The position numbers and the translations under genes are program-made. 64,000 bases of DNA from Escherichia phage vB_EcoM-RPN187. Location: sequence record OL770074.2; one strand, written 5' to 3'. The notes under the pieces are model-generated. The model saw only the letters and a list, made by a program, of their open reading frames with translations. It did no database searches and was not told the DNA's origin. How positions within the stretch are numbered: position 1 is the stretch's first letter; every line of letters begins with the position of its first letter. Positions 6,007 to 44,631 of the stretch are shown piece by piece.

Positions 6007-6276
6007 TTATTTCTGTGCAATTTCGATGTAAGTTTTCAAAATATTTTGCCAATTAGGCATACCTTCTTGGACATATGCCGGAGAACCATCTTTGTTTTTG
6101 AATGACGCAAGTTTATCAGTGGCCCAATAACCTTTAGCTCGAGCTTCGGAATCAACTTTCATCCATACTTTGTTGAAGGCATTACCATTAACTTTTGCAC
6201 CATATTTTTCTACTAATCTAACTGCTTCAGCTTCCAGAACTTTTAAAGTATCTCGTAAGAAACGTGCTTTAGTCAT
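6007..6276 (-). CDS. hypothetical protein (occupies the T4 segD position between 23 and 24)
   Basis: 89-aa ORF with its own early-type promoter upstream; no nuclease motifs. Confidence 0.5.
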   Translation of the reverse strand: MTKARFLRDTLKVLEAEAVRLVEKYGAKVNGNAFNKVWMKVDSEARAKGYWATDKLASFKNKDGSPAYVQEGMPNWQNILKTYIEIAQK

Positions 6277-6305
6277 TTTGTTTACTCCTCTGTAGTTGAT
6301 AAGTC

Positions 6306-6336
6306 TATAGTATCACATACCAAATACGTTGTAAAC
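6306..6336 (-). promoter_or_regulatory. T4 early-type promoter (GTTTAC -35, TACTAT -10) for ORF 6007..6276
   Basis: plus-strand tatagta...(17 nt)...tgtaaac is the reverse complement of GTTTACA-N17-TACTATA. Confidence 0.55.
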
Positions 6337-6342
6337 AATCTT

Positions 6343-6350
6343 TATAAATA
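6343..6350 (+). promoter_or_regulatory. late promoter TATAAATA for gene 24
   Basis: exact TATAAATA 28 nt upstream of gene 24 ATG. Confidence 0.6.
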
Positions 6351-6377
6351 ATCTATATCACATAAGGAAAAAATGCA

Positions 6378-7661
6378 ATGAGTAAAATCCAAAAATTATT
6401 GCGTGAATCTACAACGTCTACTAGCAACTCAATTGGTCGCCCAAATCTCGTTGCTTTGACTCGCGCTACGACTAAATTAATATATTCTGACATTGTAGCA
6501 ACACAAAGAACTAATCAACCTGTTGCTGCTTTTTATGGTATCAAATATCTTAACCCAGATAACGAATTCACATTTAAAACTGGTGCTACTTATGCAGGCG
6601 AAGTTGGATATGTGGACCGAGAAAAAATTACTGAGCTCACAGAAGATTCAAAAGCCACACTAAATAAAGGCGATTTTTTCAAATATAATAATATCGTCTA
6701 TAAAGTGTTAGAAGATACACCGTTTGCAGATATTCAAGAAAGTGATCTAGAACTAGCTCTTCAGATTGCAATCGTTCATTTAAAGGTACGGTTATTTTCA
6801 GATGCAGCGGTAACAAGCAAATTTGAAAGCTCTGATAGCGAAATTTCTGATGCAAGATTCCAGATTAATAAATGGCAAACTTCGGTCAAATCTCGTAAAC
6901 TTAAAACTGGTCTCACGGTTGAATTAGCGCAAGATTTGGAAGCGAATGGATTTGATGCCCCTAACTTCTTAGAAGATTTGCTTGCTACTGAAATGGCTGA
7001 TGAAATTAATAAAGATATTCTTCAGTCTTTAATTACTGTATCTAAACGCTATAAAGTTACTGGAATTACTGACACCGGATTTATTGACTTGAGCTATGCA
7101 TCCGCTCCAGAAGCAGGTCGTTCATTATATCGAATGGTGTGTGAAATGGTATCACACATTCAAAAAGAGACAACTTATACTGCAACGTTTTGTGTAGCCT
7201 CAGCTCGTGCAGCTGCTATTCTTGCTGCTTCTGGTTGGTTAAAACATAAGCCAGAAGATGACAAGTATCTTTCACAAAATGCTTATGGATTCTTGGCAAA
7301 TGGATTACCTCTTTACTGCGATACCAACAGTCCGTTAGATTATGTTATTGTGGGTGTTGTAGAAAATATCGGCGAAAAAGAAATTGTAGGGTCCATCTTT
7401 TATGCTCCATACACTGAAGGAGTAGATTTAGATGACCCTGAACATGTTGGTGCATTTAAAGTTGTAGTTGATCCAGAAAGCTTGCAACCGTCTATCGGAT
7501 TATTGGTTAGATATGCTTTATCAGCAAATCCTTACACAGTAGCAAAAGATGAAAAAGAAGCGAGAATAATTGATGGCGGGGACATGGATAAAATGGCAGG
7601 ACGTTCAGACTTGTCTGTTTTACTCGGTGTTAAATTGCCAAAAATCATCGTTGATGAATAA
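6378..7661 (+). CDS. 24: capsid vertex protein gp24
   Basis: 427-aa ORF (T4 gp24 427 aa); gp23-like fold expected; synteny. Confidence 0.93.
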   Translation: MSKIQKLLRESTTSTSNSIGRPNLVALTRATTKLIYSDIVATQRTNQPVAAFYGIKYLNPDNEFTFKTGATYAGEVGYVDREKITELTEDSKATLNKGDFFKYNNIVYKVLEDTPFADIQESDLELALQIAIVHLKVRLFSDAAVTSKFESSDSEISDARFQINKWQTSVKSRKLKTGLTVELAQDLEANGFDAPNFLEDLLATEMADEINKDILQSLITVSKRYKVTGITDTGFIDLSYASAPEAGRSLYRMVCEMVSHIQKETTYTATFCVASARAAAILAASGWLKHKPEDDKYLSQNAYGFLANGLPLYCDTNSPLDYVIVGVVENIGEKEIVGSIFYAPYTEGVDLDDPEHVGAFKVVVDPESLQPSIGLLVRYALSANPYTVAKDEKEARIIDGGDMDKMAGRSDLSVLLGVKLPKIIVDE

Positions 7662-7669
7662 AAAAAAAA

Positions 7670-7685
7670 GGGACCTTACGGTCCC
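7670..7685. terminator. bidirectional hairpin terminator between gene 24 and rnlB
   Basis: GGGACC-TTAC-GGTCCC flanked by A10 upstream and T5 downstream. Confidence 0.75.
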
Positions 7686-7692
7686 TTTTTCG

Positions 7693-8691
7693 TTATGATA
7701 CTAATTCAATCCATGCAGGACGCAGAACATCTTGCACCATTCGGACTAATTCTTTCTTAACAAGATTCGGATTATCAGATGATGTTAATACAATACCTTC
7801 ACGAGAAGTTTCTTCCAGAATATCTTGAACAGTCAATCCCATCACTTTGCCAAAATCTTTTGGCGTTACAGTCCCAATCTTAGAAATCACATTATTAACA
7901 CGATTTAATGTAACATAACAAGCTAGAACATCAAGCAAGTTTTTGTCAATTTCGGTTAATGGAACCTGAGTTTTAATAGGCTTATCAGACTTTTTCTTTT
8001 CACTGAATTTAGAGTTCTTGCACTTAATAGCTACACGAGTACCGTTTGGCAGCCATTTAGGGAAACAAGGCTTCAGAACATAACCTTCTGCCGTATTATC
8101 GCCAATAACATTAGCATCAAATACACAATTATTTGCTTCTAAAAGGTCTTCTGACGCAGTAGCATTATAAGCGGCTAAGACGGAATCAAGGTCGTTCGGA
8201 ATCATGATAAGAGAATCAAATGTTCCACGACCAAGCATTGGTGCCATTTTAAAACCGAATTCATTACAGAAATCTTGCATTTCGTAATCGGTCAAATACG
8301 TATTATCACCACTTTCTGTATTGATAAGGATATCGAACACATAAAAATCTTTTTCACCGTAGTCAACACCTTTCTGGATTCCACCGCCAGCGAATTCACC
8401 GAATACTTGATATGATACGGCTCGAGCTGCGTGCATTAATTCCTGAACGGCTTTAATAGCTTTATCATACTTCTTGAGTACGATTTCATAGCCGTAAAAA
8501 TCTTCTGCTGGAAGAATAGGGCCTGTGCGCTTGGCGCATGTGACGTTGTCACGTTCAATTATTAACGAGAAGTTGGTCCCATGGATCTTCTCACGTGCTA
8601 CCCAAACACCAGTAGTCAAACCGTTAGTGTAGAGGTTTTCAATAAACTTAGAGTTGTAGTGGTTTTCAAGACTGCTGTATTTCTTAAACAT
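7693..8691 (-). CDS. rnlB: RNA ligase 2 (RnlB)
   Basis: 332-aa ORF; nucleotidyltransferase motif I KIHGTN; T4 Rnl2 is about 334 aa; synteny after gene 24. Confidence 0.85.
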
Positions 8692-8783
8692 AAATCACCA
8701 TTATAAATAATAATATCAAAATAATTAGCAGAGACTCTATCTCTGTCCCAATGTTTAATTTGAATGGATAGAACCTAGATTCA

Positions 8784-8810
8784 TTATACCATCAAAAAAT
8801 GTAAAGCATA
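8784..8810 (-). promoter_or_regulatory. MotA-dependent middle promoter for rnlB
   Basis: minus strand reads ATGCTTTA (MotA box) - 13 nt - TATAAT. Confidence 0.5.
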
Positions 8811-9062
8811 CTAGAACTTGATTTCTATCCAGTGCCCATCACGCTGGTCGTGATTAATTTTGTACTGAAAGCCGTTATCACGGAACCACTGCCCGATTTG
8901 CTCGGTGATAGTTAAATCATTCTTTGACGGATAGTATGTAAATTGTGTCTGGCCTTTGTCAGCGGCTTTCTCTGCCATCACAGAGAAGTTAGTAATAAAA
9001 TCTTTCAACAAATTGGCTTTAGTGGCCAGGGCCCTTTCTCTTAATTCCTGTGCAAAACTCAT
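8811..9062 (-). CDS. hypothetical protein
   Basis: 83-aa ORF, start-overlaps upstream ORF stop. Confidence 0.5.
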   Translation of the reverse strand: MSFAQELRERALATKANLLKDFITNFSVMAEKAADKGQTQFTYYPSKNDLTITEQIGQWFRDNGFQYKINHDQRDGHWIEIKF

Positions 9063-9259
9063 TTCTTCACCTTTTTGTTAATAAAACGTTTACGGTATAC
9101 AACTTTTTCTTTTGCTTTAAACTTTGACCGAGCTGTCTCGGCTTTAGTCCATAGTAATCCAACTTCTTTAGGTTGTAAACCGATTTTTTGAGCAATTTCT
9201 ACGAATGAAAATCCCGCCTCATGTAATGTATAAACTTCAACTTCAGCTCTCATAATCAA
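9059..9259 (-). CDS. small helix-turn-helix protein (hypothetical)
   Basis: 66-aa ORF; segment LHEAGFSFVEIAQKIGLQPKEVGLLW resembles an HTH (sigma region-4/LuxR-like); basic C-terminus. Confidence 0.45.
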   Translation of the reverse strand: MIMRAEVEVYTLHEAGFSFVEIAQKIGLQPKEVGLLWTKAETARSKFKAKEKVVYRKRFINKKVKK

Positions 9260-9334
9260 TCCCGTATTATTTGGTTTGTGCCATTATACACATCAATCTC
9301 AAGATGTGTTTTGTATGCTTTAAAAACGAAGAAA

Positions 9335-9348
9335 GGGGCCGAAGCCCC
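9335..9348 (-). terminator. UUCG-tetraloop hairpin after hoc
   Basis: GGGGC-CGAAG-CCCC on plus gives UUCG loop on the minus transcript, followed by T-rich tract. Confidence 0.6.
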
Positions 9349-9354
9349 TTACGA

Positions 9355-10206
9355 TTATTGATAGGTATAGATGATACCAGTTTCTAAAGCAGTTTTATGA
9401 ATGATGTATCCATTACGTGATTCTTGAACATCAACTTCTGGATAATCTTGCAACATCTTCTGAAGAGTGTAACGATGCAGGTAGTATTTACTATCTGGAT
9501 CTTCAGTTTTCCAATCTTTACCTTCTTCGGTCATTTTTTGGATTTCATCCATAACCCACCAACCGCACCAGATGTAAGCTGAAGTACGATGTGGAAGAGG
9601 ATGAACATAAGGTAATTCGCCTTCTGGTTCTTGAGCAACTTTATCATTCACAGTAAGTGATACTTCATTCGAAGTAACTTCCTTTGCATCATAATCTGTC
9701 GCGGTTACTTGAGCTACACACTTAATTGTTTTAACTCCGCTTGTGGAAGGAGTGTAATTAAATGTAGCAGAAGTTGCTTCGCCTACAGGAGAACCGTCAA
9801 CGTACCACTGATACGTAGCAGATGCGCCTGATGGTTGAGAAGCTAAAGCAGCAGTAAATTCAACAGGAGTTCCAATCGCTCCAGTAGCAGGACTATCAGG
9901 AGTTACAGCTAAGGTAGTTGACTGAGTTTTATTTTTAACTGTGATAGTTGTTGTCGCTTCAGCCGTTTCCGGGCCTCCTTCAGAAAGTGTATTTGTTGCA
10001 ACAACTTTAATTGTTTTTGTTCCAGCAGGTCCTTTTAACACATAATCAAAAGTTGCTTCAGATCCATCTTGTTGAACATTATCTACAGTCCAAGCATAGG
10101 TAATAGTTCCACCTCCAGTTTCACCACTGGGTGTAGCAGTAAACTGCTGAGTCTGATCTATAACTCCAGTAGGTGTTTTAGGAGTTATATCAACTGTAAA
10201 AGTCAT
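9355..10206 (-). CDS. hoc: Hoc, outer capsid decoration protein with Ig-like domains
   Basis: 283-aa ORF; two T/S/V-rich Ig-like repeats (TITYAWTVDN...KTIKVVATN and ATYQWYVDG...KTIKCVAQV) plus Trp-rich C-terminal domain; T4 synteny. Confidence 0.8.
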   Translation of the reverse strand: MTFTVDITPKTPTGVIDQTQQFTATPSGETGGGTITYAWTVDNVQQDGSEATFDYVLKGPAGTKTIKVVATNTLSEGGPETAEATTTITVKNKTQSTTLAVTPDSPATGAIGTPVEFTAALASQPSGASATYQWYVDGSPVGEATSATFNYTPSTSGVKTIKCVAQVTATDYDAKEVTSNEVSLTVNDKVAQEPEGELPYVHPLPHRTSAYIWCGWWVMDEIQKMTEEGKDWKTEDPDSKYYLHRYTLQKMLQDYPEVDVQESRNGYIIHKTALETGIIYTYQ

Positions 10207-10215
10207 AAGTTATCC

Positions 10216-10884
10216 TTATTTTAATGTTACGAAAGAAGAATTGCGTGTTTCACGAATTAGAACTGATCCGTCGCGATTAATGTAATAAATTAAGCTAAAT
10301 AAAGTTTGGTGAGCAGAAGCATGCACAAAACTAGTTGGGCGAGATTTCCAATCTGGGGTTTCGGCTATCCATTGATAAATCCACCAAGGAACAGTAACAT
10401 ATCCTGGGCCTTTGCCTAATTTAATGAGTGTAGGACTAAAATTTTCAGGCAGAACAAATTTTACTTCTTTATTTACATCTGCCTCAGGCTCTTTTTCAGA
10501 TTCAACAACCTGAGTAATTGCTTCTTCGAATTTATCATGGTCGAATTCTTTTTCTTGTTCGACAACTTCTAATACTTCAACTTGTTCTGTTGGAGAATCA
10601 AACAACAGAATAGCTTCTTCTTTAACTTCTTCGTTGGTGAAATTAACACCGTCCACATCATCTGCGGCAGTAATTAAATCGGTGATAGATAATCCATCAG
10701 TTTCAGGTAATGGTTCATCAGCCAGTGCTTTAAGAGCTTCTTCGATATCAATAACAATATTATCGAATGATTTTGTTTTCTTAACACTAATCCCAAATTG
10801 TTCTGCGTATTCAAACAGTTTAGCTTTGGCTTCCTTTTTATCAGAAAGAGCACGTAACTCTTCAATATAGTCTTTATCGATCAT
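10216..10884 (-). CDS. inh: Inh, inhibitor of prohead protease
   Basis: 222-aa ORF (T4 Inh about 226 aa); position between hoc and uvsW. Confidence 0.7.
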   Translation of the reverse strand: MIDKDYIEELRALSDKKEAKAKLFEYAEQFGISVKKTKSFDNIVIDIEEALKALADEPLPETDGLSITDLITAADDVDGVNFTNEEVKEEAILLFDSPTEQVEVLEVVEQEKEFDHDKFEEAITQVVESEKEPEADVNKEVKFVLPENFSPTLIKLGKGPGYVTVPWWIYQWIAETPDWKSRPTSFVHASAHQTLFSLIYYINRDGSVLIRETRNSSFVTLK

Positions 10885-10897
10885 GGTATTTCCTCAT

Positions 10898-10905
10898 TAT
10901 AAATA
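10898..10905 (+). promoter_or_regulatory. late promoter TATAAATA for uvsW
   Basis: exact TATAAATA 30 nt upstream of uvsW ATG. Confidence 0.55.
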
Positions 10906-10934
10906 TAACTATATTTATTACATGGTAATTTGAC

Positions 10935-12449
10935 ATGACTGACATTAAAGTACATTTTTATGATTTTAGTCACGTGCGCATTGAATGCGACGAAAGTACG
11001 TTTTACGAACTTCGTGACTTTTTTAGTTTTGAAGCTGACGGGTATAAATTTAACCCAAAATATCGCTATGGGAACTGGGATGGTAGAATTCGACTTTTAG
11101 ATTATAACCGTTTGTTACCATATGGACTTGTAGGACAAATAAAAAAGTTCTGTAATAATATGAGTTATTCTGTATGGATTGACCCTAAAATATTTGAGAC
11201 CGAAGACCTTACCAGGGAAGATTTTGACGCATGGCTTTCTAAACAAGAAATTTATTCGGGCAACTCCAAAATCGAACCACATTGGTATCAAAAAGATGCA
11301 GTATACGAAGGATTAGTTAATCGTCGTCGAATTTTAAACCTTCCGACATCAGCAGGTAAATCACTAATCCAAGCACTTTTAGCTCGATATTATCTAGAGA
11401 ACTATGAAGGTAAAATTCTCATTATCGTCCCTACAACAGCATTGACAACCCAGATGGCTAATGATTTTGTTGATTATCGCTTGTTTAGTCATTCGATGAT
11501 TAAGAAAATTGGCGGTGGTGCTGATAAAGCAGACAGAGCTAAAAACGACGCTCCAATTATTGTTGGCACATGGCAAACAGTAGTTAAGCAGCCTAAAGAA
11601 TGGTTCTCTCAGTTCGGTATGATGATGAATGATGAATGCCACTTAGCAACAGGCAAAAGTATTTCTTCAATCATCTCAGGATTAAATAATTGCATGTTTA
11701 AATTCGGTTTATCTGGCTCATTAAGAGATGGAAAAGCCAATGTAATGCAGTACGTAGGTATGTTCGGCGAAATCTTCCGTCCTGTTAGCACGTCTAAATT
11801 AATGGAAGACGGACAGGTAACTGAGCTTAAGATTAATAGTATTTTCCTTCGTTATCCGGACGAATTCACCGTTAAATTAAAAGGTAAAACATACCAAGAA
11901 GAAGTTAAAATTATTACCGGACTAAAACGACGTACAAAGTGGATTGCTCAACTTTCAGTCAAATTGGCTAAGAAAGACGAGAACGCCTTTGTAATGTTTA
12001 AACACGTTACACACGGTAAAGAAATATTTGAAGCTATTAAAGAGCTTGGATACGAAAAAGTTTATTACGTATCAGGTGAAGTTGATACTGAAACACGTAA
12101 CGCGCTTAAAGTCATGGCAGAAAATGGTAAAGGCATTATTATTGTCGCATCATATGGAGTATTCTCTACTGGTATTTCAGTCAAGAATCTTCATCATGTT
12201 ATTTTTGCCCATGGTGTTAAATCAAAAATTATCGTACTTCAAACCGTAGGTCGCGTGCTTCGTAAGCATGGTTCTAAAGCTGTTGCTACAGTTTGGGATC
12301 TCATCGATGACGCAGGTGTAAAACCTAAATCATTAAATACTAAAAAGAAGTATACTCATCTTAATTACTTGTTAAAACACGGTATTGATCGTATCCAACG
12401 TTACGCTGATGAGAAATTTAACTATGTAATGAAAACAATTAATTTATAA
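10935..12449 (+). CDS. uvsW: UvsW DNA/RNA helicase (SF2)
   Basis: 504-aa ORF; Walker A PTSAGKS, DECH box (MMMNDECHL), SF2 motifs; T4 UvsW 502 aa. Confidence 0.95.
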   Translation: MTDIKVHFYDFSHVRIECDESTFYELRDFFSFEADGYKFNPKYRYGNWDGRIRLLDYNRLLPYGLVGQIKKFCNNMSYSVWIDPKIFETEDLTREDFDAWLSKQEIYSGNSKIEPHWYQKDAVYEGLVNRRRILNLPTSAGKSLIQALLARYYLENYEGKILIIVPTTALTTQMANDFVDYRLFSHSMIKKIGGGADKADRAKNDAPIIVGTWQTVVKQPKEWFSQFGMMMNDECHLATGKSISSIISGLNNCMFKFGLSGSLRDGKANVMQYVGMFGEIFRPVSTSKLMEDGQVTELKINSIFLRYPDEFTVKLKGKTYQEEVKIITGLKRRTKWIAQLSVKLAKKDENAFVMFKHVTHGKEIFEAIKELGYEKVYYVSGEVDTETRNALKVMAENGKGIIIVASYGVFSTGISVKNLHHVIFAHGVKSKIIVLQTVGRVLRKHGSKAVATVWDLIDDAGVKPKSLNTKKKYTHLNYLLKHGIDRIQRYADEKFNYVMKTINL

Positions 12450-12464
12450 GGGCTTCGGCCCTTA
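12449..12464 (+). other. CUUCGG hairpin between uvsW and uvsW.1 (no T-run; RNA structure)
   Basis: AAGGGC-TTCG-GCCCTT overlapping uvsW stop, immediately followed by SD AGGAG of uvsW.1. Confidence 0.5.
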
Positions 12465-12474
12465 GGAGATAAAA

Positions 12475-12705
12475 ATGGTACTTGAATTTAAACAATTTTT
12501 ATACGAAGCATCTATTGACGAATTCATGGGTAAAATTGCTAGTTGTCATACCTTAGAAGGGCTTGAAGAATTGGAAGCTTATTATAAGAAACGTATAAAA
12601 GAAACGAAATTAAAAGATACAGATGATATTTCTGTCAGGGATGCCTTAGCAGGTAAGCGTGCCGAACTTGAAGGCGACGATGATGATGAGGAAGAAGACT
12701 TCTAA
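12475..12705 (+). CDS. uvsW.1: UvsW.1 small acidic protein
   Basis: 76-aa ORF with SD AGGAG; acidic DDDDEEEDF tail; T4 UvsW.1 is 76 aa. Confidence 0.8.
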   Translation: MVLEFKQFLYEASIDEFMGKIASCHTLEGLEELEAYYKKRIKETKLKDTDDISVRDALAGKRAELEGDDDDEEEDF

Positions 12706-12761
12706 TTAAAAAAGGCCCGACCTTTTTGGAAGGGCCAAAACCATAGGCAAAAAAGGTAACA

Positions 12762-12929
12762 CTATAGTAAAAGTTGGGTTTCGTTCAATTGCTCTTCTGA
12801 ACTTTCTGAAACCGGCATTTGTTGGACATAATTATAACAAGGCCCAGGATGTGCTGGTCCTTTGTCTGTTTCAACAACCAATGCAGAATCGATTGGAGTT
12901 TTACAGACAACACAAATCTTATCTGACAT
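12762..12929 (-). CDS. small Cys-containing hypothetical protein (uvsY upstream-region ORF)
   Basis: 55-aa ORF below the ORF-track threshold; strong SD GGAGG 6 nt upstream; CxxC...C spacing; minus-strand TATAAATA 30 nt upstream. Confidence 0.4.
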   Translation of the reverse strand: MSDKICVVCKTPIDSALVVETDKGPAHPGPCYNYVQQMPVSESSEEQLNETQLLL

Positions 12930-12958
12930 GATTGCCTCCTAAGTTGAAATTACATATC

Positions 12959-12966
12959 TATTTATA
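12959..12966 (-). promoter_or_regulatory. late promoter (TATAAATA on minus strand)
   Basis: plus tatttata = minus TATAAATA, 30 nt upstream of ORF 12762..12929. Confidence 0.4.
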
Positions 12967-13186
12967 CAACTCGCATGCACATATCGATACCCATATCTTT
13001 TGTATAAAAATACTCGTCGATGTACCCAGCAAACTTCCCTTTAATATAAAGGACGTCTTCGCCACAAGGGTGGTCTGCCAGGATACGAATATCCTGGCGT
13101 CGTAGACGATACTTTTCCATTAAGAATTTAATTTCAGTTTCAAATTCTTCATCATTATTAAAGGCATCTTCAATTGAATAGCGCAT
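12962..13186 (-). CDS. hypothetical protein (T4 uvsY.-1/-2 position)
   Basis: 74-aa ORF start-overlapping uvsY stop. Confidence 0.5.
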   Translation of the reverse strand: MRYSIEDAFNNDEEFETEIKFLMEKYRLRRQDIRILADHPCGEDVLYIKGKFAGYIDEYFYTKDMGIDMCMRVV

Positions 13187-13599
13187 TATTGCCCCGCTTC
13201 AAATTCTCGCATATCCTGGATATGTTTAAGTGCAAAACTACGAGACTTAACTGCGTCAAGTGCACCACTACAGAACTCAAGTAAAATTCCCCAGTATTGT
13301 AAAGTAGTCTCTATTTTAAGCACATCTTTATCTGCAGCCAGGACAGTTTTCATTTCAGACTTCTCGTATCGGTCCATACTGAATTCATCACCGTCACCTC
13401 GTCCCGAGTAGTAGTCTAATCTTGCTTTTAGAGCAGTTTTCTTCTGAGTCTCTATACGCAACATTTCTTTACGAATAAATGAGTGCTTACGTAGCCATTT
13501 GCTGTATAACTTAACATTATTCGCCGTCTCATATTGCAACTTTGTCATATCAATAGCTAAGTCTGCGTCTAACTCTTCCTGTAAATCTTCCAGCTTCAT
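13186..13599 (-). CDS. uvsY: UvsY recombination mediator protein
   Basis: 137 aa from MKLEDLQEEL; near-identical to recalled T4 UvsY; the 164-aa track ORF is an upstream in-frame extension. Confidence 0.9.
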   Translation of the reverse strand: MKLEDLQEELDADLAIDMTKLQYETANNVKLYSKWLRKHSFIRKEMLRIETQKKTALKARLDYYSGRGDGDEFSMDRYEKSEMKTVLAADKDVLKIETTLQYWGILLEFCSGALDAVKSRSFALKHIQDMREFEAGQ

Positions 13600-13654
13600 A
13601 ATGTTCTCTCTTTTAACTAATAATCTCCCGGCTGTATCGGAAGGACCTAAAACC

Positions 13655-13680
13655 ATTATACACAGGTTGCCTTGAAGCAT
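13655..13680 (-). promoter_or_regulatory. MotA-dependent middle promoter for uvsY
   Basis: minus strand ATGCTTCA (MotA box) - 12 nt - TATAAT; overlaps gene 25 stop. Confidence 0.55.
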
Positions 13681-14078
13681 TACACTCTATTGCTTGACGC
13701 TAACTGAAGTTTAATTTGTTCAATATCGTCAGGGTTGTCTACGACCGAAAATCTAATCTCTACTATAACCGTATAGTCATCATATACTGGCGTTACACTC
13801 ACAGAAAGTTTGTCGATGCGTGGCTCATAGTTACGAACAGCTGCCTGGATATTACGCTCAATCGTATCGGCTGTAAGTGGTGTCATGTTCTCGAAAAGTT
13901 CGTCGACCAAATCGCATCCAAATTCAGGGTCGAAGGGGCGTGAGCCTTTTCTAGTTGTCACTATGCCAAGAAGACTATTTTTAATAGAACGAAGTCCTAC
14001 AGAACGAGCAACGTCCTTGTTCCAATCCATACGCATTTCTGGGTCGATATCTGAATAAAGTTTATTGATATTAGACAT
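13680..14078 (-). CDS. 25: baseplate wedge protein gp25
   Basis: 132-aa ORF (T4 gp25 132 aa); synteny. Confidence 0.9.
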   Translation of the reverse strand: MSNINKLYSDIDPEMRMDWNKDVARSVGLRSIKNSLLGIVTTRKGSRPFDPEFGCDLVDELFENMTPLTADTIERNIQAAVRNYEPRIDKLSVSVTPVYDDYTVIVEIRFSVVDNPDDIEQIKLQLASSNRV

Positions 14079-14704
14079 TATAGTAACTCAAAGAATTCTT
14101 TGAGGCCTCGTATTGTGTGAACGTGTGACGCCCCACATTTGGGACATTTAATAGGGGTTGCCAGATAAATTGATGGCGATACTAAAAGATTTTTAATATT
14201 GATCATGTCATCTTCTGTTATAAGGCCGTAAAGGTCGTTTATTTCTGCTTCAGTTAAATCTTCAACAGGGATGGACTCTCCATTGACAAAAACAGCCTCA
14301 ATACATGAAGCAATCATTAATGCGATATTTTTATCGTCAAATAATTTAGGTTGACGGAACTTAATTTTAATACCACTGAACGAATACCAGGGATCGGCCT
14401 GTTCATCTAATCGAGTGTGCAATAAATTCATATAGACTTGAAATGAATGCCCACAGGAACAATTCCAGGTGTGTTCTTGATTCACTTCACCTAATGAATG
14501 TGCCCACAGATTTACCAACAATAACTCGGCTTCTTGTTTAGTCAAGTTTTTAGCGTTAGAGCAATTAGTGATAATATTGTTCACTGCTGATTCAATAGTA
14601 CCTGTAGCCCGCGCACCTATGAGTCCTAGATATTCTTTTAAAGTAAAGGCTCTACAATTCACTTCTTTATCGCCTAAACGTACGGTAAACGTATATTTGT
14701 ACAT
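14078..14704 (-). CDS. 26: baseplate hub protein gp26
   Basis: 208-aa ORF (T4 gp26 208 aa); start-overlaps gene 25. Confidence 0.85.
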   Translation of the reverse strand: MYKYTFTVRLGDKEVNCRAFTLKEYLGLIGARATGTIESAVNNIITNCSNAKNLTKQEAELLLVNLWAHSLGEVNQEHTWNCSCGHSFQVYMNLLHTRLDEQADPWYSFSGIKIKFRQPKLFDDKNIALMIASCIEAVFVNGESIPVEDLTEAEINDLYGLITEDDMINIKNLLVSPSIYLATPIKCPKCGASHVHTIRGLKEFFELL

Positions 14705-14721
14705 GTTAACTCCTTTATTGT

Positions 14722-14733
14722 GTATTTATAAAT
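14722..14733. promoter_or_regulatory. overlapping divergent late promoters (TATAAATA on both strands) for 26-25 and 51-27-28-29-48-54
   Basis: plus tatttataaata contains TATAAATA (14726-14733, +) and its reverse complement (14722-14729, -). Confidence 0.6.
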
Positions 14734-14751
14734 AATAGAAAAGGAGTAATT

Positions 14752-29734: not shown

Positions 29735-30305
29735 AAAAGTTTCGGATTTGTTCCCAATTCAGAGAACGAAGATTATTACGAGAGTACTGAATTACTTCAA
29801 TACCGGCTTGTTTTAGAATGTCTGCCCAATTTTCAGGAGATCGATCGTATAATTCTGCGTATACAACCTTTTTAATACCTGACTGCGTAATAGCTTTAGT
29901 GCAATCAGGACACGGAGAAAGCGTCGTATATAACGTAGCACCTTCAATAGAATTACCTTTACGAGCTGCAAACAAAATTGCGTTCAGTTCCGCATGGATT
30001 TCGTTATTAGCAGACCATGCACTATGAGCCGCTCGATGTTCTTTAGCCAAAACAAAATTATCTGCCCGTCCAAATGCCGTAGTGCCTTCTTTATGTCCAG
30101 CAACGATGACCGGACTTGGTTTATTCTTCAACCAACCATTTTCGGATGCATGTTCGCAACAGTTAACGCCACCGGCCGGTGAACCATTATATCCAGTAGA
30201 GATAATGCGCCCATCTTTTTCAATGACGGCACCAACTTTCCATGAACAACATTTTGATTCTTGAGAAATCAAATAAGCAATTTGAAGATATGTGCTAGCT
30301 TTCAT
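29724..30305 (-). CDS. cd: dCMP deaminase
   Basis: 193-aa ORF; zinc-binding HAE (HAELNAI) and PCPDC motifs; T4 Cd 193 aa. Confidence 0.95.
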   Translation of the reverse strand: MKASTYLQIAYLISQESKCCSWKVGAVIEKDGRIISTGYNGSPAGGVNCCEHASENGWLKNKPSPVIVAGHKEGTTAFGRADNFVLAKEHRAAHSAWSANNEIHAELNAILFAARKGNSIEGATLYTTLSPCPDCTKAITQSGIKKVVYAELYDRSPENWADILKQAGIEVIQYSRNNLRSLNWEQIRNFCGE

Positions 30306-31297
30306 TATTGAACCTTATTAATATAAGTTAACAGCTCTTTAGTTTGTTCCCAACTGATGCACGCATCGGTAACGGAAACGCCATAGGACATATTATCAGA
30401 AATTTTTTGATTTCCTTCATGTAGGAATGATTCTATCATAATTCCTTTGACCAAATCATTAGCTGCTAAATTTTTACCAATACCAATTTGATTGCTATAA
30501 CACCCATCAGCGTTTGCATGGCTACAGTCAACCATTACATAATGATTCAGACCTAATGCACTTGCTTTGTTAGAAGCTTCTTGAATATCAGAAGAATGAT
30601 AGTTCGGGCCGTTGGTCCCACCACGCAATACGATATGCGTATTCTGATTACCTTCAGCTTCAACAATGCCTACAGTACCATCGACGTCCATACCCATATA
30701 CCGATGAGGCCAGGCGGCACTATACATCGCGTCTGTAGCTACTTTAATAGAACCATTGGTTGCGTTCTTGAAGCCTACGCACATCGGTAGACCTGAAGCA
30801 ATTTCACGATGTGTCTGACTTTCAGTCGTACGGGCGCCAATAGCAACCCATGAGAAAATACCAGAAAGATACTTAATTGTGAATGGGTCTAATACTTCAG
30901 TTGCTAATGGAAGTCCCATACGTAGAAGTTTACGACACAATGTTCGTGCAACTATAAGACCGTGGTTCATATCAAAACTTCCGTCAAGATATGGATCATT
31001 TACAAGACCTTTCCAACCTACGGTAGTTCGAGGCTTTTCAAAATAAACGCGCATCACTAACAGAACATTAGGAAGACGAGTTTGAAGTTCAGCCAGACGT
31101 TTGCCGTATTCAACAGCAGCAATAGGGTCATGAATTGAACAAGGACCTACAACAATAAGTTTGCGTGGGTCTTCACCGTTCATAATCGAATTAACTTGTT
31201 CGCGATGAGAAGCCACTTGTGATGCGTAAGCTTCCGACAAAGGAATAATCTCAGCCAGTTCTTTTGGAGAAATAAGTTTTCTGATGACAGGTAACAT
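30305..31297 (-). CDS. 3-deoxy-D-arabino-heptulosonate-7-phosphate (DAHP) synthase, class I AroG/AroF-like
   Basis: 330-aa ORF; AroG-like motifs LIVVGPCSIHD, KPRTTVGWKGL, GARTTESQ, DCSHAN, ESFLHEGNQ, TDACI; SD TAAGGA; start overlaps cd stop. Confidence 0.85.
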   Translation of the reverse strand: MLPVIRKLISPKELAEIIPLSEAYASQVASHREQVNSIMNGEDPRKLIVVGPCSIHDPIAAVEYGKRLAELQTRLPNVLLVMRVYFEKPRTTVGWKGLVNDPYLDGSFDMNHGLIVARTLCRKLLRMGLPLATEVLDPFTIKYLSGIFSWVAIGARTTESQTHREIASGLPMCVGFKNATNGSIKVATDAMYSAAWPHRYMGMDVDGTVGIVEAEGNQNTHIVLRGGTNGPNYHSSDIQEASNKASALGLNHYVMVDCSHANADGCYSNQIGIGKNLAANDLVKGIMIESFLHEGNQKISDNMSYGVSVTDACISWEQTKELLTYINKVQ

Positions 31298-32394: not shown

Positions 32395-33480
<1,086 letters not shown>

Positions 33481-33481
<1 letters not shown>

Positions 33482-33780: not shown

Positions 33781-33808
33781 TTAGATTTCCTCAATTATCC
33801 ATAGGAGC

Positions 33809-35183: not shown

Positions 35184-35214
35184 TAATTTTCTCCTCGTGT
35201 TGTTGATAAAAGCC

Positions 35215-35244
35215 ATAGTAACACCTTCCTTGGTGTTTGTAAAC
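35215..35244 (-). promoter_or_regulatory. T4 early-type promoter
   Basis: minus GTTTAC-N18-TACTAT. Confidence 0.5.
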
Positions 35245-35246
35245 CA

Positions 35247-36380
<1,134 letters not shown>

Positions 36381-36426
36381 TCAGTTAGTTTTTTTAAATT
36401 GTACCACAATCCTTGTGGCATGTAAA

Positions 36427-36837
36427 CTACTTTTTCTTATGTTGGATATTCCAAGGCGGGTTGAACTTTTTGATAAAAAGCGGTTCTTCAAGGTCCATTG
36501 TTGCGATGGTCATTGAACCAAGTTCGTTGGTGACTGAAAGGTCAAAACATTGGCGGGCCCAGAATTCAACCTTTTTGCCTTGCATTAAGGCATCCAAAAT
36601 CATAAGTGATTTTCTTGAATCTGAAGTCTGGTCTTTTCGATTTATGGCTGTTCGATAATAGTTAATGCGTTTCTTTAAATTCTTGGTTTTACCAATATAC
36701 ACAAGCTCGTCATCTATAGCAATAGCGTATATGACATTTTTCTTATTAGGGACATCAACTGTTTTAATTGTTGCATCTTCTAATAGCTCCAATTCTGTAT
36801 ATTTAATAAAGGAATATTCGGCGGCAATATCTTTCAT
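36427..36837 (-). CDS. denA: endonuclease II (DenA)
   Basis: 136-aa ORF (T4 DenA 136 aa); GIY-YIG-like segment VIYAIAIDDELVYIGKT; position next to nrdB. Confidence 0.8.
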   Translation of the reverse strand: MKDIAAEYSFIKYTELELLEDATIKTVDVPNKKNVIYAIAIDDELVYIGKTKNLKKRINYYRTAINRKDQTSDSRKSLMILDALMQGKKVEFWARQCFDLSVTNELGSMTIATMDLEEPLFIKKFNPPWNIQHKKK

Positions 36838-36845
36838 AATAAAGT

Positions 36846-36859
36846 GGGACCGAAGTCCC
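36846..36859 (-). other. UUCG-tetraloop hairpin between nrdB and denA
   Basis: GGGAC-CGAAG-TCCC. Confidence 0.5.
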
Positions 36860-36863
36860 GTCC

Positions 36864-38054
36864 TTAGAAATATTTTTTGTATGAATTGATTACATTTTGG
36901 TCTACATCATTATCAATTTGTGCGACAAGATAAGAACTGATTTCAACTTCCTGAGGAGCTGCTTGAACTAAATCAGAGTTCAGATATTCACGAATCCAAG
37001 GATACGGATGCTTGGTCGGAGCATCAGTGATTGGGCAGGGTAAACCACACTGTTTCATACGAGACACAGTCAAGTAATCAACAAAAGCACACATACTCTG
37101 CGTATTGATACCTGGACATGTACCGTCTTTAAAGAGGTGTGCAGCCCATTCCTTCTCTTGACTATTTACTTCCATAAAAATGCCAACTGCTTCTTGTTCA
37201 CATTCTTTAGCAATTTGAACCCACTCATCACCGTCAGTACCAGATTGAAGTTGACGGATAATGTACTGAGTACCCTTTAGGTGGAGTTGTTCGTCACGAG
37301 CAATGAACTTCATAATCTTTGCATTACCTTCCATAATTTCCATATTTTTATGGAAGTTGAAAGTACATGCGAAAGATACATAAAAACGAATAGCTTCCAA
37401 GGCGTTAATTACATGAAGGCAAAGATAAAGAGATTTCATTAGCTCACGCTTCCAATATGTCTCATGCTCAATAGCATCTTCAATAACGTCTTCGTCTGCA
37501 TTAATTTCTTTTTGGTATTTGATATCAGCTTTAGCGTTTTCCCAATAACGAGTTTTAACCAGAACATCATCGTAATATTTACCTATTGATTCAGCTCGTT
37601 TCATGATTGCTTCGTCTAATACAATCTCATCAAATACCTTAGACGGATCGGTATAAAGATTTCGCATAATATGAGTATACGAACGAGAGTGAATAGTTTC
37701 GCTGAATGTCCATGTTGCAACCCACGTATCTAATGAAGGGTCAGAAATCAGTGCCATAAGTACCGCAGATGGGGCTCTGCCTTGGATAGAATCTAATAAT
37801 GATTGATACTTAAGATTGTTTGTAAAGATGTCCTGTTGGAACTGAGGAAGCTTATTGAACTGCGCAGAGTCCAACATCAAGTTTACCTCTTCGGGGCGCC
37901 AGAAAAACGAGAGCTGACGTTCAATAAGTTCTTCAAATACTCGATGTCGTTGAATATCATAACGAGCTAAACCTAATCCAGAACCAAAGAACATCGGTTC
38001 ATTCAAAACATCAACTTGTTGTGTGTTAAAAACTGTACTCATTATATTTCTCAC
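36864..38054 (-). CDS. nrdB: ribonucleotide reductase small subunit NrdB (intron-less)
   Basis: 396-aa uninterrupted ORF with class Ia R2 ferritin-like features; T4 nrdB carries a group I intron, none here. Confidence 0.93.
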   Translation of the reverse strand: MRNIMSTVFNTQQVDVLNEPMFFGSGLGLARYDIQRHRVFEELIERQLSFFWRPEEVNLMLDSAQFNKLPQFQQDIFTNNLKYQSLLDSIQGRAPSAVLMALISDPSLDTWVATWTFSETIHSRSYTHIMRNLYTDPSKVFDEIVLDEAIMKRAESIGKYYDDVLVKTRYWENAKADIKYQKEINADEDVIEDAIEHETYWKRELMKSLYLCLHVINALEAIRFYVSFACTFNFHKNMEIMEGNAKIMKFIARDEQLHLKGTQYIIRQLQSGTDGDEWVQIAKECEQEAVGIFMEVNSQEKEWAAHLFKDGTCPGINTQSMCAFVDYLTVSRMKQCGLPCPITDAPTKHPYPWIREYLNSDLVQAAPQEVEISSYLVAQIDNDVDQNVINSYKKYF

Positions 38055-38094
38055 TTAGTTTAACTCATCCATGAGTAAATTATAATCAAAAGTC

Positions 38095-40350
38095 TTAAAG
38101 CTTACAAGCAGAACAATCTTCAGCTTTAGGTGTTTCTAATTCATAGTCATCTGTACCTGACCCATCACGAGTGTTATGATAGTAGAGATTTTTTCCGCCA
38201 AAGTACCAGAAGTAAAGCAGATCGTCAAGCATTACTGACATTGGCACTTTACCTTTCTCAAATACCGCAGGGTCATAGTAAGTATTAGCAGAAGCAGATT
38301 GGCACACCCATTTCAACATGATAGCAACTTGGGTCAAATAAGGTTTATTACCTTTCTTAGCAAGTTTCCACGCGTAGTCGTAAAGACTCATGTTATGTTC
38401 TATATTAGGAACAACCTGACGGAAGTTGCCTTCTTTAGATTCTTTAATACTTACTGGACCGCGTGGGGGCTCAATCCCGTTTGTAGAGTTTGATACTTGA
38501 CTGCTTGACTCACAAGGCATGAGTGCAGACAACGTTGAGTTACGAATTCCATGTTCTTTGAGTTCAGCTCGAAGTTCTTCCCAGTCACAGACGTAGTTCG
38601 GGGCTGCGATTTGGTCAATCTTTTTATTGTACCAGTCGATAGGTAATTCGCCTCTAGACCATTTAGTGTCTGAATAATACTCGCAACATCCTTTTTCTTT
38701 GGCGAGTTTGATTGAAGCTTTGATAAGGCCATATTGCAATCTCTCAAACAATTCATGAGTCAAATCGTTAGCGTCTTCATATGAAGCAAAGTTAGAAGTT
38801 AACCATGCAGCATAGTTCGTCACACCAACACCGAGGTTTCGACGCTTTTTAGCTTTTAAAGCTTCTGGAACCGGATAATCTTGATAGTCTAACAGGTTAT
38901 CAAGTGCACGAACTTGGACTTCTGCCAATTCATTAATTTTATCTTGGTCTTGCCAATCAAATTTATCTAATACAAAAGCAGATAATGTGCATAAACCAAT
39001 TTCAGCATCAGGACCATTCACATCATTAGTTGGAATAGCGATTTCACAACATAAGTTACTCTGACGAATTGGAGCTTTTTCACGAATAAATGGAGTATAG
39101 TTATTAGTGTTATCAACAAACTGTGGATAAATTCGAGCGGTGCCAGAACGTTCAGTCATGAACAATTCAAAGAGTTCTAGTGCTTTGATTCTTTTCTTTC
39201 TGATTGTCGGGTCTTTTTCAGCTTTCTCATAAAGCTCACGGAATTTATCTTGATCTTCAAAGAACGAGTAGTATAGTTCGCCTGACATTTCGTGAGGGCT
39301 AAATAAAGTAATATAATCATTTTTACCAAGGCGTTCCATCATGAGGTCATTAATCTGAATTCCGTAGTCCATATGTCGAATACGGTTTTCATCCACGCCT
39401 TTGTTATTTTTCAGAACTAATAGGTTCTCTACTTCTAAGTGCCACATTGGATAATAAGCTGTAGCAGCACCACCACGAATACCACCTTGAGAACAAGATT
39501 TTACTGCAGTTTGGAAATGTTTCCAGAATGGAATAACACCCGTATGTCGAACTTCACCCATACCGATCTTAGAACCTTCTGCACGAAGCATACCAACGTT
39601 GATACCGATACCAGCTCGTTTAGAAATATATTCAATAATTGATGCTGAAGTTTTGTTAATAGATTTTAACGAATCACCAGCTTCAATAACTACACAACTA
39701 GAGAACTGACGAGTTGGAGTACGAGCACCTGCCATAATTGGGGTAGGCAATGAAACTTGATGAGTAGAAACGGCATCATAAAAACGAATAATATGTTTCA
39801 AACGGTCATGAGTTTCGTCTTGGTGTAAGGCCATACCAATAGCCATGATAGCAAACTGTGGAGTTTCATAAATCTTCCCAGTTGTTTTATCTTTAACTAG
39901 ATATTTTTCTTTAAGCTGCATAGCACCAGCATAAGTCAGGTCAAAGTCTCGTTCATGTTTAATCTGTGAATCGAGATAAATGATTTCTTCTGCTGAATAT
40001 TGAGACAACAACTCAGGGTCGTATTTACCTTCATTAACACAGTAAGAAATATGGTCGATAAAAGCAGGCGGTTCAAACTGCCCGTATACATCTTTACGAA
40101 GTGCAAACATTAATCCTTTAGCGGCGACATACTGATAATCAGGTTCTTCGACAGAAATCAAGTTAGCTGCAACTTTAATACAAATCTTCTGAATATCTTT
40201 GGTGCTCATCCCATCGACAAGATGGGTCTTAATTTCTTCGTATAATTCATATGGGTCGATTTGTGTTCCTTCACATTGCCAAGTTAAAACTTGAATAATT
40301 TTCTGTGCATCAAAATTTTGAGATACACCACTGCTCTTAGTTACTTGCAT
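38095..40350 (-). CDS. nrdA: ribonucleotide reductase large subunit NrdA
   Basis: 751-aa ORF (T4 NrdA 754 aa); C-terminal redox cysteine pair. Confidence 0.95.
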   Translation of the reverse strand: MQVTKSSGVSQNFDAQKIIQVLTWQCEGTQIDPYELYEEIKTHLVDGMSTKDIQKICIKVAANLISVEEPDYQYVAAKGLMFALRKDVYGQFEPPAFIDHISYCVNEGKYDPELLSQYSAEEIIYLDSQIKHERDFDLTYAGAMQLKEKYLVKDKTTGKIYETPQFAIMAIGMALHQDETHDRLKHIIRFYDAVSTHQVSLPTPIMAGARTPTRQFSSCVVIEAGDSLKSINKTSASIIEYISKRAGIGINVGMLRAEGSKIGMGEVRHTGVIPFWKHFQTAVKSCSQGGIRGGAATAYYPMWHLEVENLLVLKNNKGVDENRIRHMDYGIQINDLMMERLGKNDYITLFSPHEMSGELYYSFFEDQDKFRELYEKAEKDPTIRKKRIKALELFELFMTERSGTARIYPQFVDNTNNYTPFIREKAPIRQSNLCCEIAIPTNDVNGPDAEIGLCTLSAFVLDKFDWQDQDKINELAEVQVRALDNLLDYQDYPVPEALKAKKRRNLGVGVTNYAAWLTSNFASYEDANDLTHELFERLQYGLIKASIKLAKEKGCCEYYSDTKWSRGELPIDWYNKKIDQIAAPNYVCDWEELRAELKEHGIRNSTLSALMPCESSSQVSNSTNGIEPPRGPVSIKESKEGNFRQVVPNIEHNMSLYDYAWKLAKKGNKPYLTQVAIMLKWVCQSASANTYYDPAVFEKGKVPMSVMLDDLLYFWYFGGKNLYYHNTRDGSGTDDYELETPKAEDCSACKL

Positions 40351-40437
40351 ACATTCCTCAGTACAGGTTGGTAGACATTACTCCAAACGGGATAGTATTT
40401 ATCCCGTTAATTTATTATACACTTTTAAACTGAAGCG

Positions 40438-40692
40438 TTAATTATCCTCAGCAATAATTTCTTCGTATTCTTTAGGTGTCAAGACTGTGATATCGAAATA
40501 AACCAACGGTTCTTTTTCTATACCGTAACCACCACAAAATTCACGATATTCATAAATTCGTTCGTGTGAATAGCAAATAAATCGTTCACCTTTAACTGTG
40601 ATTTCACTATTAGGTGAAGGGATATCCAGTTCACTTGGATTTTTCATTTCAAAAATTGTGGTGCCATATGAATTAATAAAACGTAAAATCAT
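40438..40692 (-). CDS. hypothetical protein (nrdA.1 position)
   Basis: 84-aa ORF between td and nrdA. Confidence 0.5.
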   Translation of the reverse strand: MILRFINSYGTTIFEMKNPSELDIPSPNSEITVKGERFICYSHERIYEYREFCGGYGIEKEPLVYFDITVLTPKEYEEIIAEDN

Positions 40693-40693
40693 T

Positions 40694-42404
<1,711 letters not shown>

Positions 42405-42421
42405 TTTTATTTGATAGGGCT

Positions 42422-42451
42422 ACTATAACATAGCCCTATCTTGTTATAAAC
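42422..42451 (-). promoter_or_regulatory. T4 early-type promoter with -10 in loop of a 9-bp inverted repeat
   Basis: minus GTTTAT-N18-TATAGT; IR gatagggct/agccctatc. Confidence 0.45.
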
Positions 42452-42843
42452 TACTTTTTAAAAGTTTTTTGCAAAAGTTTGATGATTTCGTCGACGTTGG
42501 TTTCATCTACGATACAATGGATTTTTGTTACACCTAAAGTTATACCTTCATTAGTAGGTTGAGGCTTTACTAAATCTACCTCAGTAAAGTATTTGAACTC
42601 GTCAGGATAAATCTCAAAATAAGTTTCAATTTCACCACCAGCAGAACATACCGTACCATCTTCCATAGTTACACTTACTACGTTTGACGTATCGCTATCA
42701 TAATCAGGTTCCATTCCGTTTACAACAAAACTAGGCCCGTGAAGTTCAATCAATTTTAACATCTTAGCGTTATTGTGTGGTGCTTCTTGAACAAAGTCGT
42801 CTTTAAACAAAGGGTTAATGATATAAGATTTTCCGATTTCCAT
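42451..42843 (-). CDS. hypothetical protein (frd.2 position)
   Basis: 130-aa ORF. Confidence 0.5.
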   Translation of the reverse strand: MEIGKSYIINPLFKDDFVQEAPHNNAKMLKLIELHGPSFVVNGMEPDYDSDTSNVVSVTMEDGTVCSAGGEIETYFEIYPDEFKYFTEVDLVKPQPTNEGITLGVTKIHCIVDETNVDEIIKLLQKTFKK

Positions 42844-42872
42844 TTTGATTTCCTCATGTTGTTGATAGAACT

Positions 42873-42901
42873 ATAATATCACATCTAGGGAAGAAGTAAA
42901 C
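42873..42901 (-). promoter_or_regulatory. T4 early-type promoter
   Basis: minus GTTTAC-N17-TATTAT. Confidence 0.5.
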
Positions 42902-42933
42902 AACTTTTTTTGGCAATTTACAGATACTCAAAA

Positions 42934-42951
42934 GGGAGACCGAAGTCTCCC
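42934..42951 (-). terminator. CUUCGG tetraloop terminator after gene 32
   Basis: GGGAGA-CCGAAG-TCTCCC 7 nt after gene 32 stop, followed by T-run on minus. Confidence 0.8.
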
Positions 42952-42957
42952 GATTTA

Positions 42958-43860
42958 TTATAGACCAGCTAACAGGTCATCGAGGTCGCCATCATCAGAG
43001 GATGAGGTAGAGCTCATGAAGTCATCTTCAGTTTTTGCAGAACTAAAGGCTTCCATGTCTTTATCAAAATCGTCAAGGTCAGAAGCAACTTTATCTGCAA
43101 CAGAAGCTGCTGCGGCTGCTGCACCACCAAGAGCGGCAGTACCAAGAACTTGATTAAATTTAGTATTCAATTCTTCAAACGATTTGAACTTATCTTTAGA
43201 AGTCATTTCAGAAAGGTCAACCATTTGTTCGAACAATTCTTTCTGGAAAGATTCATCATCAATGTTTGGAATCGCAGATTGATTCAGGAATTTAGATTCG
43301 TCGTAGTTACTGAAACCAGAAACCTGTTTAACTTTCAGTACAAAGTTAGCACCTTCCCATGGGCAAGTTACATCAACAGGAGTTTCACCCATTTCAGTAT
43401 CGACTGCAATCATTGCATTGATTTTGTCCCAAATCTTTTTACCAAAACGGTATTTGAATACTTTACCTTCATTGTCTGGAGCTTGTGGGTCTTTAACAAC
43501 CAGGATATTAGCCCAATAAGAAGTTTTACGTTTCAGTTGAGAATATTCTGTTTTGTTTGTATTGTACAGATCATTTTTACTAATGTACTGACATACTGGA
43601 CAAGAGTCATAATCGCCGTGTGTAGATGAACAGGTTTCAATATACCATTTGCCGTTTTTCTTGAACCCGTGGTTAACAAGAATTGCAAACGGAAGTGCGT
43701 CATCTGTTTTTGCCGGCAGGAAACGAATTACCGCTTGACCATTACCGGATGCATCGAGTTTCAGCTTCCATTCACCTTTATCTTCTGAAGAGAAACCTTT
43801 GTTACCATTCAGTTTAGCCATCTGAGCTGCGAGGTCTGCGGTACTTTTACGTTTAAACAT
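42958..43860 (-). CDS. 32: single-stranded DNA-binding protein gp32
   Basis: 300-aa ORF near-identical to recalled T4 gp32; acidic C-terminal tail. Confidence 0.97.
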
Positions 43861-43948
43861 TTTATTTGCCTTTATTTAGATTATTAATTAAATTTTACAG
43901 TTGGTTGCTACGACACTTATACCTCGTAGCTGGTATGTTTTATTTATA
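43861..43948 (-). promoter_or_regulatory. gene 32 5' leader: late promoter, hairpin and A/U-rich autoregulatory operator
   Basis: minus TATAAATA (43941-43948); palindrome gctacga...tcgtagc (43907-43930); 46-nt A/T-rich unstructured tract up to the ATG. Confidence 0.6.
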
Positions 43949-43977
43949 CGGTAATTCTAACACACAAGAAATAAAGC

Positions 43978-44631
43978 TTAATACTTACATGATTTGATTG
44001 TTTCTATGAACAATTTCTTAGCAGCATTTCCATCGATTTGAAGTATTTTTCGATATGCCTTTAATTTGGTAGAATAATTTTGCCAGACTAAGTTATCGGT
44101 GAGTTCGTCGTGCTTATCTATAATATTCAAAAATGAGTCCAACAATAAGAAAGTCTCAAATGAAATTATATTGCTTTGTAGCAATTTGAATATGTAGCTC
44201 GACTGAACGTTGTTATTATAATCAAATATCTCTTGAAGCGCACTAACTTCAACTTTCTTACTGAAATAGTAGATGTTACGCACGTCTTCAGCAAACGTCT
44301 CCTTGGCTTGTTTGAGACGTCCAATATATTCCCTATAGAAAACTAATGCATCAGCGTCTGATATCTCACCAATCCATGCGTCTTGGTTAGCAACTAAGTT
44401 GCTTATGAATATCAAGGTGAGTTCCTTCAATTTATATTTCTCTGATAGTTTTTCAAAGAAATATTTATCTCGGCGTTTTTGATACGCATTATCCGAAACA
44501 CGCATGCACCAGTTATATTTGATTACGTCATACCGACCATTAAAATGTTGTTTGCACATCAAGTATAGTTTATATACCGATTTTCCATTAATATAACGTT
44601 CTCCATCAGGAGGCATGCGTATTTTAATCAT
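43978..44631 (-). CDS. 59: gp59 helicase-loading protein
   Basis: 217-aa ORF near-identical to recalled T4 gp59 (MIK.RMP..GERYI.GKSVYKLYLM). Confidence 0.95.
   Translation of the reverse strand: MIKIRMPPDGERYINGKSVYKLYLMCKQHFNGRYDVIKYNWCMRVSDNAYQKRRDKYFFEKLSEKYKLKELTLIFISNLVANQDAWIGEISDADALVFYREYIGRLKQAKETFAEDVRNIYYFSKKVEVSALQEIFDYNNNVQSSYIFKLLQSNIISFETFLLLDSFLNIIDKHDELTDNLVWQNYSTKLKAYRKILQIDGNAAKKLFIETIKSCKY

Follow-up and report, generated by a model that had tools for sequence, protein, structure and literature searches.

Fifteen homing endonuclease genes are listed for phage T4 and "None" for phage RB69 (Petrov et al. 2010, PMC2993671, Table 5), and RB69 was also reported to have no group I introns (Nolan 2006, PMC1524935). 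Variable endonuclease content is a typical trait of the Tevenvirinae (PMC10844046). Because RB69, the type member of its lineage, was reported without either kind of element, their absence is the published norm of that lineage, and T4 is an endonuclease-rich outlier. Here, we compared a stretch of 64,000 nucleotides (nt) from Escherichia phage vB_EcoM-RPN187 (sequence record OL770074.2; the whole stretch is hereafter called the window) with these phages at the positions where T4 carries mobile elements, including the group I introns of td and nrdB. We conclude, with a probability of about 0.9, that the window covers the part of an RB69-type Mosigvirus genome between gene 19 and rIIB and has the empty allele at all six positions of T4 mobile elements in that region, an allelic state that is usual in the lineage and did not arise by loss from a T4-like state. 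The absence is real, ordinary and already known for this phage group. Alone, it is of little importance, as publications from 2006-2010 had already described RB69-type phages as lacking the T4 homing endonucleases and introns.

Relationship of the window to RB69 and T4

Megablast was used to compare three large pieces of the window with 50,697 phage records. The Escherichia phages AV112 and AV113, which are filed under Straboviridae, Tevenvirinae, Mosigvirus, were found to be the top matches, with each query aligned over its full length (100%) at 98-99% identity. Many other Mosigvirus genomes ranked below these two, and RB69 was approximately 95-97% identical to the window at the nucleotide level. 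In contrast, T4 could be aligned with the window only by the more sensitive blastn, with identities of 68-87% per segment. The window was collinear with its relatives except in five small indel regions, which, relative to RB69, lay at hoc, uvsY.-2, 30.3/30.4, the cd.1 slot and a frd.3-like open reading frame (ORF). In particular, the genes between gene 19 and rIIB were arranged alike in the window and in RB69 (NC_004928), AV112 and AV113, at 95-99% nucleotide identity, and in all of them td and nrdB were intact and the four intergenic slots were free of endonuclease genes. T4, a Tequatrovirus, shares the backbone genes and their order with the window but is only 70-82% identical to it at the DNA level, and its homologous stretch (100-150 kb) additionally carries segD, segE, mobE, segG and two group I introns with endonuclease genes, none of which the window has. 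By sequence comparison, the stretch is an RB69-type Mosigvirus genome and not T4. The first-pass annotation had identified the genes correctly and had described the elements as missing from a T4 backbone; this frame of reference was wrong, since the window falls within the RB69 group (Mosigvirus) and is collinear with RB69 and AV112 at each of the six empty sites. The window is best read against RB69, not T4.

Empty alleles at six T4 mobile-element positions

As the first-pass annotation had proposed, the window was aligned with the T4 reference, using blastn against the homologous T4 stretch (NC_000866, 100000-149999). The alignment revealed six T4-only insertions, none of which was filled by an endonuclease in the window (Table 1). 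The homologous T4 region holds six mobile elements, not five, namely segD, segE, the nrdB intron with the I-TevIII relic, mobE (with nrdB.1), the td intron with I-TevI, and segG. The earlier statements that no seg gene lies between genes 23 and 24, between inh and uvsW or between genes 32 and 59 were borne out by this alignment and by the endonuclease searches described below, and the length given for the inh/uvsW gap was confirmed. The slot that mobE fills in T4, between nrdA and nrdB, had been left out; it was likewise empty. In the segG slot, the part of the spacer proximal to gene 32 was homologous to the T4 gene 32 leader, and the homology with T4 reached position 43936. Additionally, a rough check of alignment spans among the 20-25 closest relatives revealed no extra block of at least 600 nt over window positions 1-25000, such as would mark a seg gene at 23/24 or inh/uvsW.

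The td and nrdB genes were found to be free of introns, as first annotated, with contiguous exons at both insertion sites and full-length ORFs. The Td protein of the window had the same length as spliced T4 Td (286 amino acids, aa) and was 82% identical to it, and the 392-aa NrdB was 86% identical to spliced T4 NrdB. The genomic td and nrdB sequences of T4 each matched the window as two abutting exon blocks. When T4 was spliced at the boundaries inferred from these blocks, where exon 1 ends in T and the intron in G, stop-free reading frames for proteins of 286 and 388 aa were obtained. The start of nrdB had been placed at a GTG at 38054 (ORF 36864..38054); most likely, the gene instead begins with the ATG at 38042, which has a GAG Shine-Dalgarno sequence in front of it and was also chosen as the start in the AV112 annotation.

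Table 1. Positions of features in the window and lengths left unaligned between the window and T4 at the six mobile-element slots
Feature	Position	Strand	Unaligned, window (nt)	Unaligned, T4 (nt)	Remarks
gene 23, major capsid protein	4386..5954	+			ORF; left flank of segD slot; collinear with RB69 gene 23 (522 aa) and T4 gene 23
terminator-like site after gene 23	5978..5997	+			hairpin and T-run; sequence kept in AV112 and RB69
89-aa conserved hypothetical gene, phrog_6003	6007..6276	-			not an endonuclease
slot 23/24			326	714	T4 element segD
gene 24, capsid vertex protein	6378..7661	+			right flank of segD slot
slot inh/uvsW (50-nt spacer)	10885..10934		19	635	T4 element segE
nrdB, uninterrupted, 392 aa	36864..38042	-			T4/RB3 intron site on + strand between 37366 and 37367
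slot inside nrdB			2	600	T4 element: 598-nt intron with I-TevIII relic
slot nrdB/nrdA (52-nt spacer)	38043..38094		58	702	T4 element mobE and nrdB.1
nrdA, uninterrupted, 751 aa	38095..40350	-			
td, uninterrupted, 286 aa	40694..41554	-			intron insertion site on + strand between 41005 and 41006
slot inside td			2	1019	T4 element: 1017-nt intron with I-TevI
gene 32, single-stranded DNA binding protein	42958..43860	-			
slot 32/59 (117-nt gene 59/gene 32 spacer)	43861..43977		43	623	T4 element segG
gene 59, helicase loader	43978..44631	-			

Endonuclease genes were searched for with ten protein queries, six of them from the T4 region and four from Mosigvirus relatives (I-TevI-like, full-length I-TevIII-like and free-standing HNH ORFs from G2469 and NRG-P0074, and the HNH gene that splits nrdA of JM17). 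The target was the window itself for tblastn and, for phmmer --max, all 950 segments of at least 30 aa in its six-frame translation. Neither tblastn nor phmmer --max with these queries revealed anything above chance in the six frames of the 64 kilobases (kb), the best E-value being 0.012. The GIY-YIG queries (SegD, SegE, SegG and I-TevI) gave best E-values of at least 0.019 in the six frames, with no PF01541-type match in the hypothetical ORFs, and the best value for the HNH-type queries (MobE, I-TevIII and the nrdA-associated endonucleases) was the chance-level 0.012. In the positive control on T4, the endonuclease queries recovered themselves and also one another, the latter with E-values of 1e-5 to 1e-23. 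A weak I-TevIII-like match at 7403-7531 on the minus strand (E = 0.012-0.12) was rejected as a chance match, as it covered 35-43 aa antisense inside the conserved gene 24 and arose in a search with ten queries. A Pfam search of 26 small or hypothetical ORFs of 6007-44631 revealed no GIY-YIG, HNH or LAGLIDADG domain; apart from a DAHP synthase, all domains returned belonged to T4 families, as expected. The "Serglycin" matches that Pfam returned on every concatenated query were an artefact of the GS linkers used to join the ORFs.

Group I intron cores were searched for with Rfam. In E-value mode, the Intron_gpI (RF00028) cores of the T4 td and nrdB introns were detected at 40.3 and 35.7 bits, and no Intron_gpI match was found in the whole window. 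The gathering threshold also gave no match in the window, but this result was uninformative and was set aside, as there was likewise none in T4 or in three intron-bearing Mosigvirus loci. The T4 td and nrdB introns (T4 stretch 37900-45200) score below the Intron_gpI gathering score of 50 and are missed by a default Rfam scan; the gathering threshold is therefore unfit for ruling out ORF-bearing phage group I introns. Intron-like RNA or endonuclease ORFs that the first-pass annotation might have overlooked were thus looked for across the 64 kb, and none was detected.

The 89-aa gene in the 23/24 slot and other differences in gene content

The segD slot had been described as holding an unrelated 89-aa ORF instead. 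The ORF is indeed unrelated to endonucleases, but it is a conserved occupant of the slot and not a stand-in for segD. Its residues 1-89 matched positions 1-90 of the 90-position PHROGs profile phrog_6003 (E = 3.9e-45; category unknown function), and no Pfam family matched it. With tblastn, homologues were found in 239 phage records, approximately 117 of them at 95-99% identity and 119 at 30-38%; the low-identity group included Gaprivervirus VR7, JS10 and some records filed under Mosigvirus (AV114, AV115 and PNJ-9). In VR7, the homologue (2201-2482 of the compared sequence) is flanked by genes 23 and 24 and runs opposite to them, exactly as in the window, and in RB69 the same DNA is annotated as two fragments, ORF188c and ORF189c. 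The predicted 89-aa gene is the conserved gene that usually fills the 23/24 slot in non-T-even coliphages of the RB69, JS98 and VR7 types. The slot gene thus has two strongly differing alleles, approximately 97-99% and 30-38% identical to the window protein, and the presence of the divergent allele in AV114, AV115 and PNJ-9 suggests allelic replacement in the slot.

Upstream of the 89-aa ORF, we found a GGAG Shine-Dalgarno sequence and a promoter-like site, GTTTACA-17-(TG)-TACTAT, at 6336-6307 on the minus strand. The early promoter that had been attributed to this ORF resembles the T4 early consensus on visual inspection, but a generic promoter scan was no better than shuffled sequence, with one site found and 1.7 expected. 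The putative promoter may confer early expression. Back to back with this site, a late-promoter-like motif, TATAAATA, was read by eye at approximately 6338-6345 on the plus strand, upstream of gene 24. A single-sequence AlphaFold (AF2) model of the 89-aa protein was mostly helical and of low confidence, with a pLDDT of 65.8 and a pTM of 0.50.

Compared with RB69, the window contained a 1.1-kb DAHP synthase gene in the cd.1 slot, a shorter hoc, a different 30.4 segment and an intact 89-aa ORF, and it lacked ORF245c. No mobile endonuclease was involved in any of the differences, and none of the five indel regions resembled an intron or endonuclease gene by alignment or Pfam. The DAHP synthase gene encodes 330 aa (30305-31297, minus strand; Pfam DAHP_synth_1, E = 8.5e-74). 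This segment is absent from RB69 and T4 and is present in AV112 and many Mosigvirus genomes, where it is annotated as aroF or phospho-2-dehydro-3-deoxyheptonate aldolase. At 283 aa, the hoc product of the window (9355-10206, minus strand) is shorter than those of RB69 (471 aa) and T4 (376 aa), and the difference in hoc length explains most of the variation in span that relatives show in this part of the genome. The frd.3-like ORF (RB69ORF245c, approximately 230 nt), which lies between frd.2 and gene 32 in RB69 and many relatives, is absent from the window (42844-42957) and from AV112.

Origin of the empty sites and their susceptibility to homing

The Mosigvirus phages G2469 (vB_EcoM_G2469), NRG-P0074 and JM17 had backbones approximately 94-98% identical to that of the window over this region, and their td and nrdB exon contexts were identical or nearly identical to those of the window. 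In contrast to the window, they carry a TuIa-type intron in td and an RB3-type intron in nrdB, both at exactly the window's exon junctions. The td intron of these siblings is 1016-1017 nt long, contains a 245-aa GIY-YIG ORF, and is 99.7% identical to that of TuIa and approximately 90% identical to that of T4. Their nrdB intron is 1090-1096 nt long (1369-2461 of the compared G2469 locus sequence, with equivalent positions in NRG-P0074 and JM17), contains a 269-aa HNH ORF, and is 98-100% identical to the Tequatrovirus intron (RB3, JK45 and T4). NRG-P0074 and JM17 also have additional HNH endonuclease genes at nrdA that are not in the window: a 236-aa gene splits nrdA of JM17 into two ORFs (4174-4884 of the compared locus sequence), and a 211-aa gene lies immediately upstream of nrdA in NRG-P0074 (5447-6082 of the compared locus sequence).

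In the sibling nrdB exons, short T4-like tracts were present from approximately -57 to +21 around the intron, and the rest of the gene was approximately 79% identical to T4. Such tracts are the footprint that homing with co-conversion would be expected to leave, here across genera, and they show that this backbone can be invaded. In a 2010 review, convincing evidence for homing across genera was found to be lacking (PMC2993671). Unlike those of the intron-bearing siblings, the nrdB exon flanks of the window were not T4-like.

The absence of T4-like tracts from the window nrdB argues against a recent loss, in which an ancestor would have carried introns, seg or mob genes, or both, and these were precisely removed, for example by recombination with empty alleles. 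The presence of introns and endonucleases is polymorphic within the genus, which implies that gain and loss are both ongoing in the population; however, no remnant ORF, scar or intron fragment was found at any of the six sites, and the empty state is common to RB69, AV112 and most close relatives, which makes secondary loss a decidedly unlikely history. That real introns or endonuclease genes were collapsed out of the sequence by an assembly or reading artefact is next to inconceivable, as the same uninterrupted arrangement occurs in the independently sequenced AV112, AV113, RB69, phi25-307, pEB20 and many more, and the reading frames are intact. It is also possible to picture the sites as resistant rather than naive, with the site sequence or phage exclusion functions blocking cleavage or repair from T-even donors. 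The window td keeps a motif of the CNNNG type, CAACG, which we take to be the I-TevI cut site; the insertion site follows 23-27 nt downstream, a spacing that matches T4 and is presumably right for the enzyme, whose binding region would span the insertion site. Between this motif and the insertion site, the window td differs from T4 by three substitutions, with four more at exon 2 positions +1 to +15; the slot flanks are only 74-82% identical to T4, and RB69 excludes T4 completely, with no recombinants recovered (PMC2993671). On the other side, the sibling exons differ from the window by just 1-2 nt near the td junction, and the close match of the sibling nrdB intron to RB3 and T4, together with the T4-like exon tracts, implies that cross-genus homing into this backbone has occurred. 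We consider resistance of the sites improbable, and it is very doubtful that the endonuclease-free state is actively maintained, with RB69 exclusion functions or small slot-occupying genes such as phrog_6003 serving as barriers to selfish elements.

Some points weigh against an empty state inherited within the lineage and still open to homing. Only 64 kb of the genome was in view, and endonuclease genes could sit elsewhere, for example as equivalents of T4 segA-C, segF, mobA-D or the nrdD intron. A lineage that was never invaded is not strictly separable from one with an ancient precise loss followed by divergence. Finally, that the empty td and nrdB sites can be cleaved is inferred from their sequence and from the siblings. 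With the common lineage state as the favoured explanation, T4 and its close T-even relatives would have gained selfish elements, and RB69-type phages would mostly not have done so.

The empty td and nrdB sites retain the sequence found around the introns of the intron-bearing siblings and may thus remain possible recipients for intron homing, in which an endonuclease cut would be followed by exonuclease resection and by repair that uses an intron-bearing phage in the same cell as the template. The description of the backbone as a naive target is accordingly plausible for td and nrdB, since Mosigvirus siblings carry introns at the same junctions with near-identical flanks. A parallel is offered by endonuclease-poor recipients in classical homing crosses, such as T2 in the T4 x T2 marker exclusion, which have element-free alleles that keep the target sequence, as the window may do, and such alleles can be converted by double-strand-break repair (PMC2790892, PMC2993671). 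T2 is close to T4 and recombines with it, whereas the lineage of the window is far more diverged and RB69 excludes T4 (PMC2993671). Because of this exclusion without recombinants, and because the flanks are so dissimilar to T4, the mixed infection with T4 that the first-pass annotation had put forward is an unsuitable test of homing. The realistic donors for the window would be intron-bearing Mosigvirus phages and not T4, and it is only with such donors that the empty td and nrdB alleles would be sensible recipients for homing.

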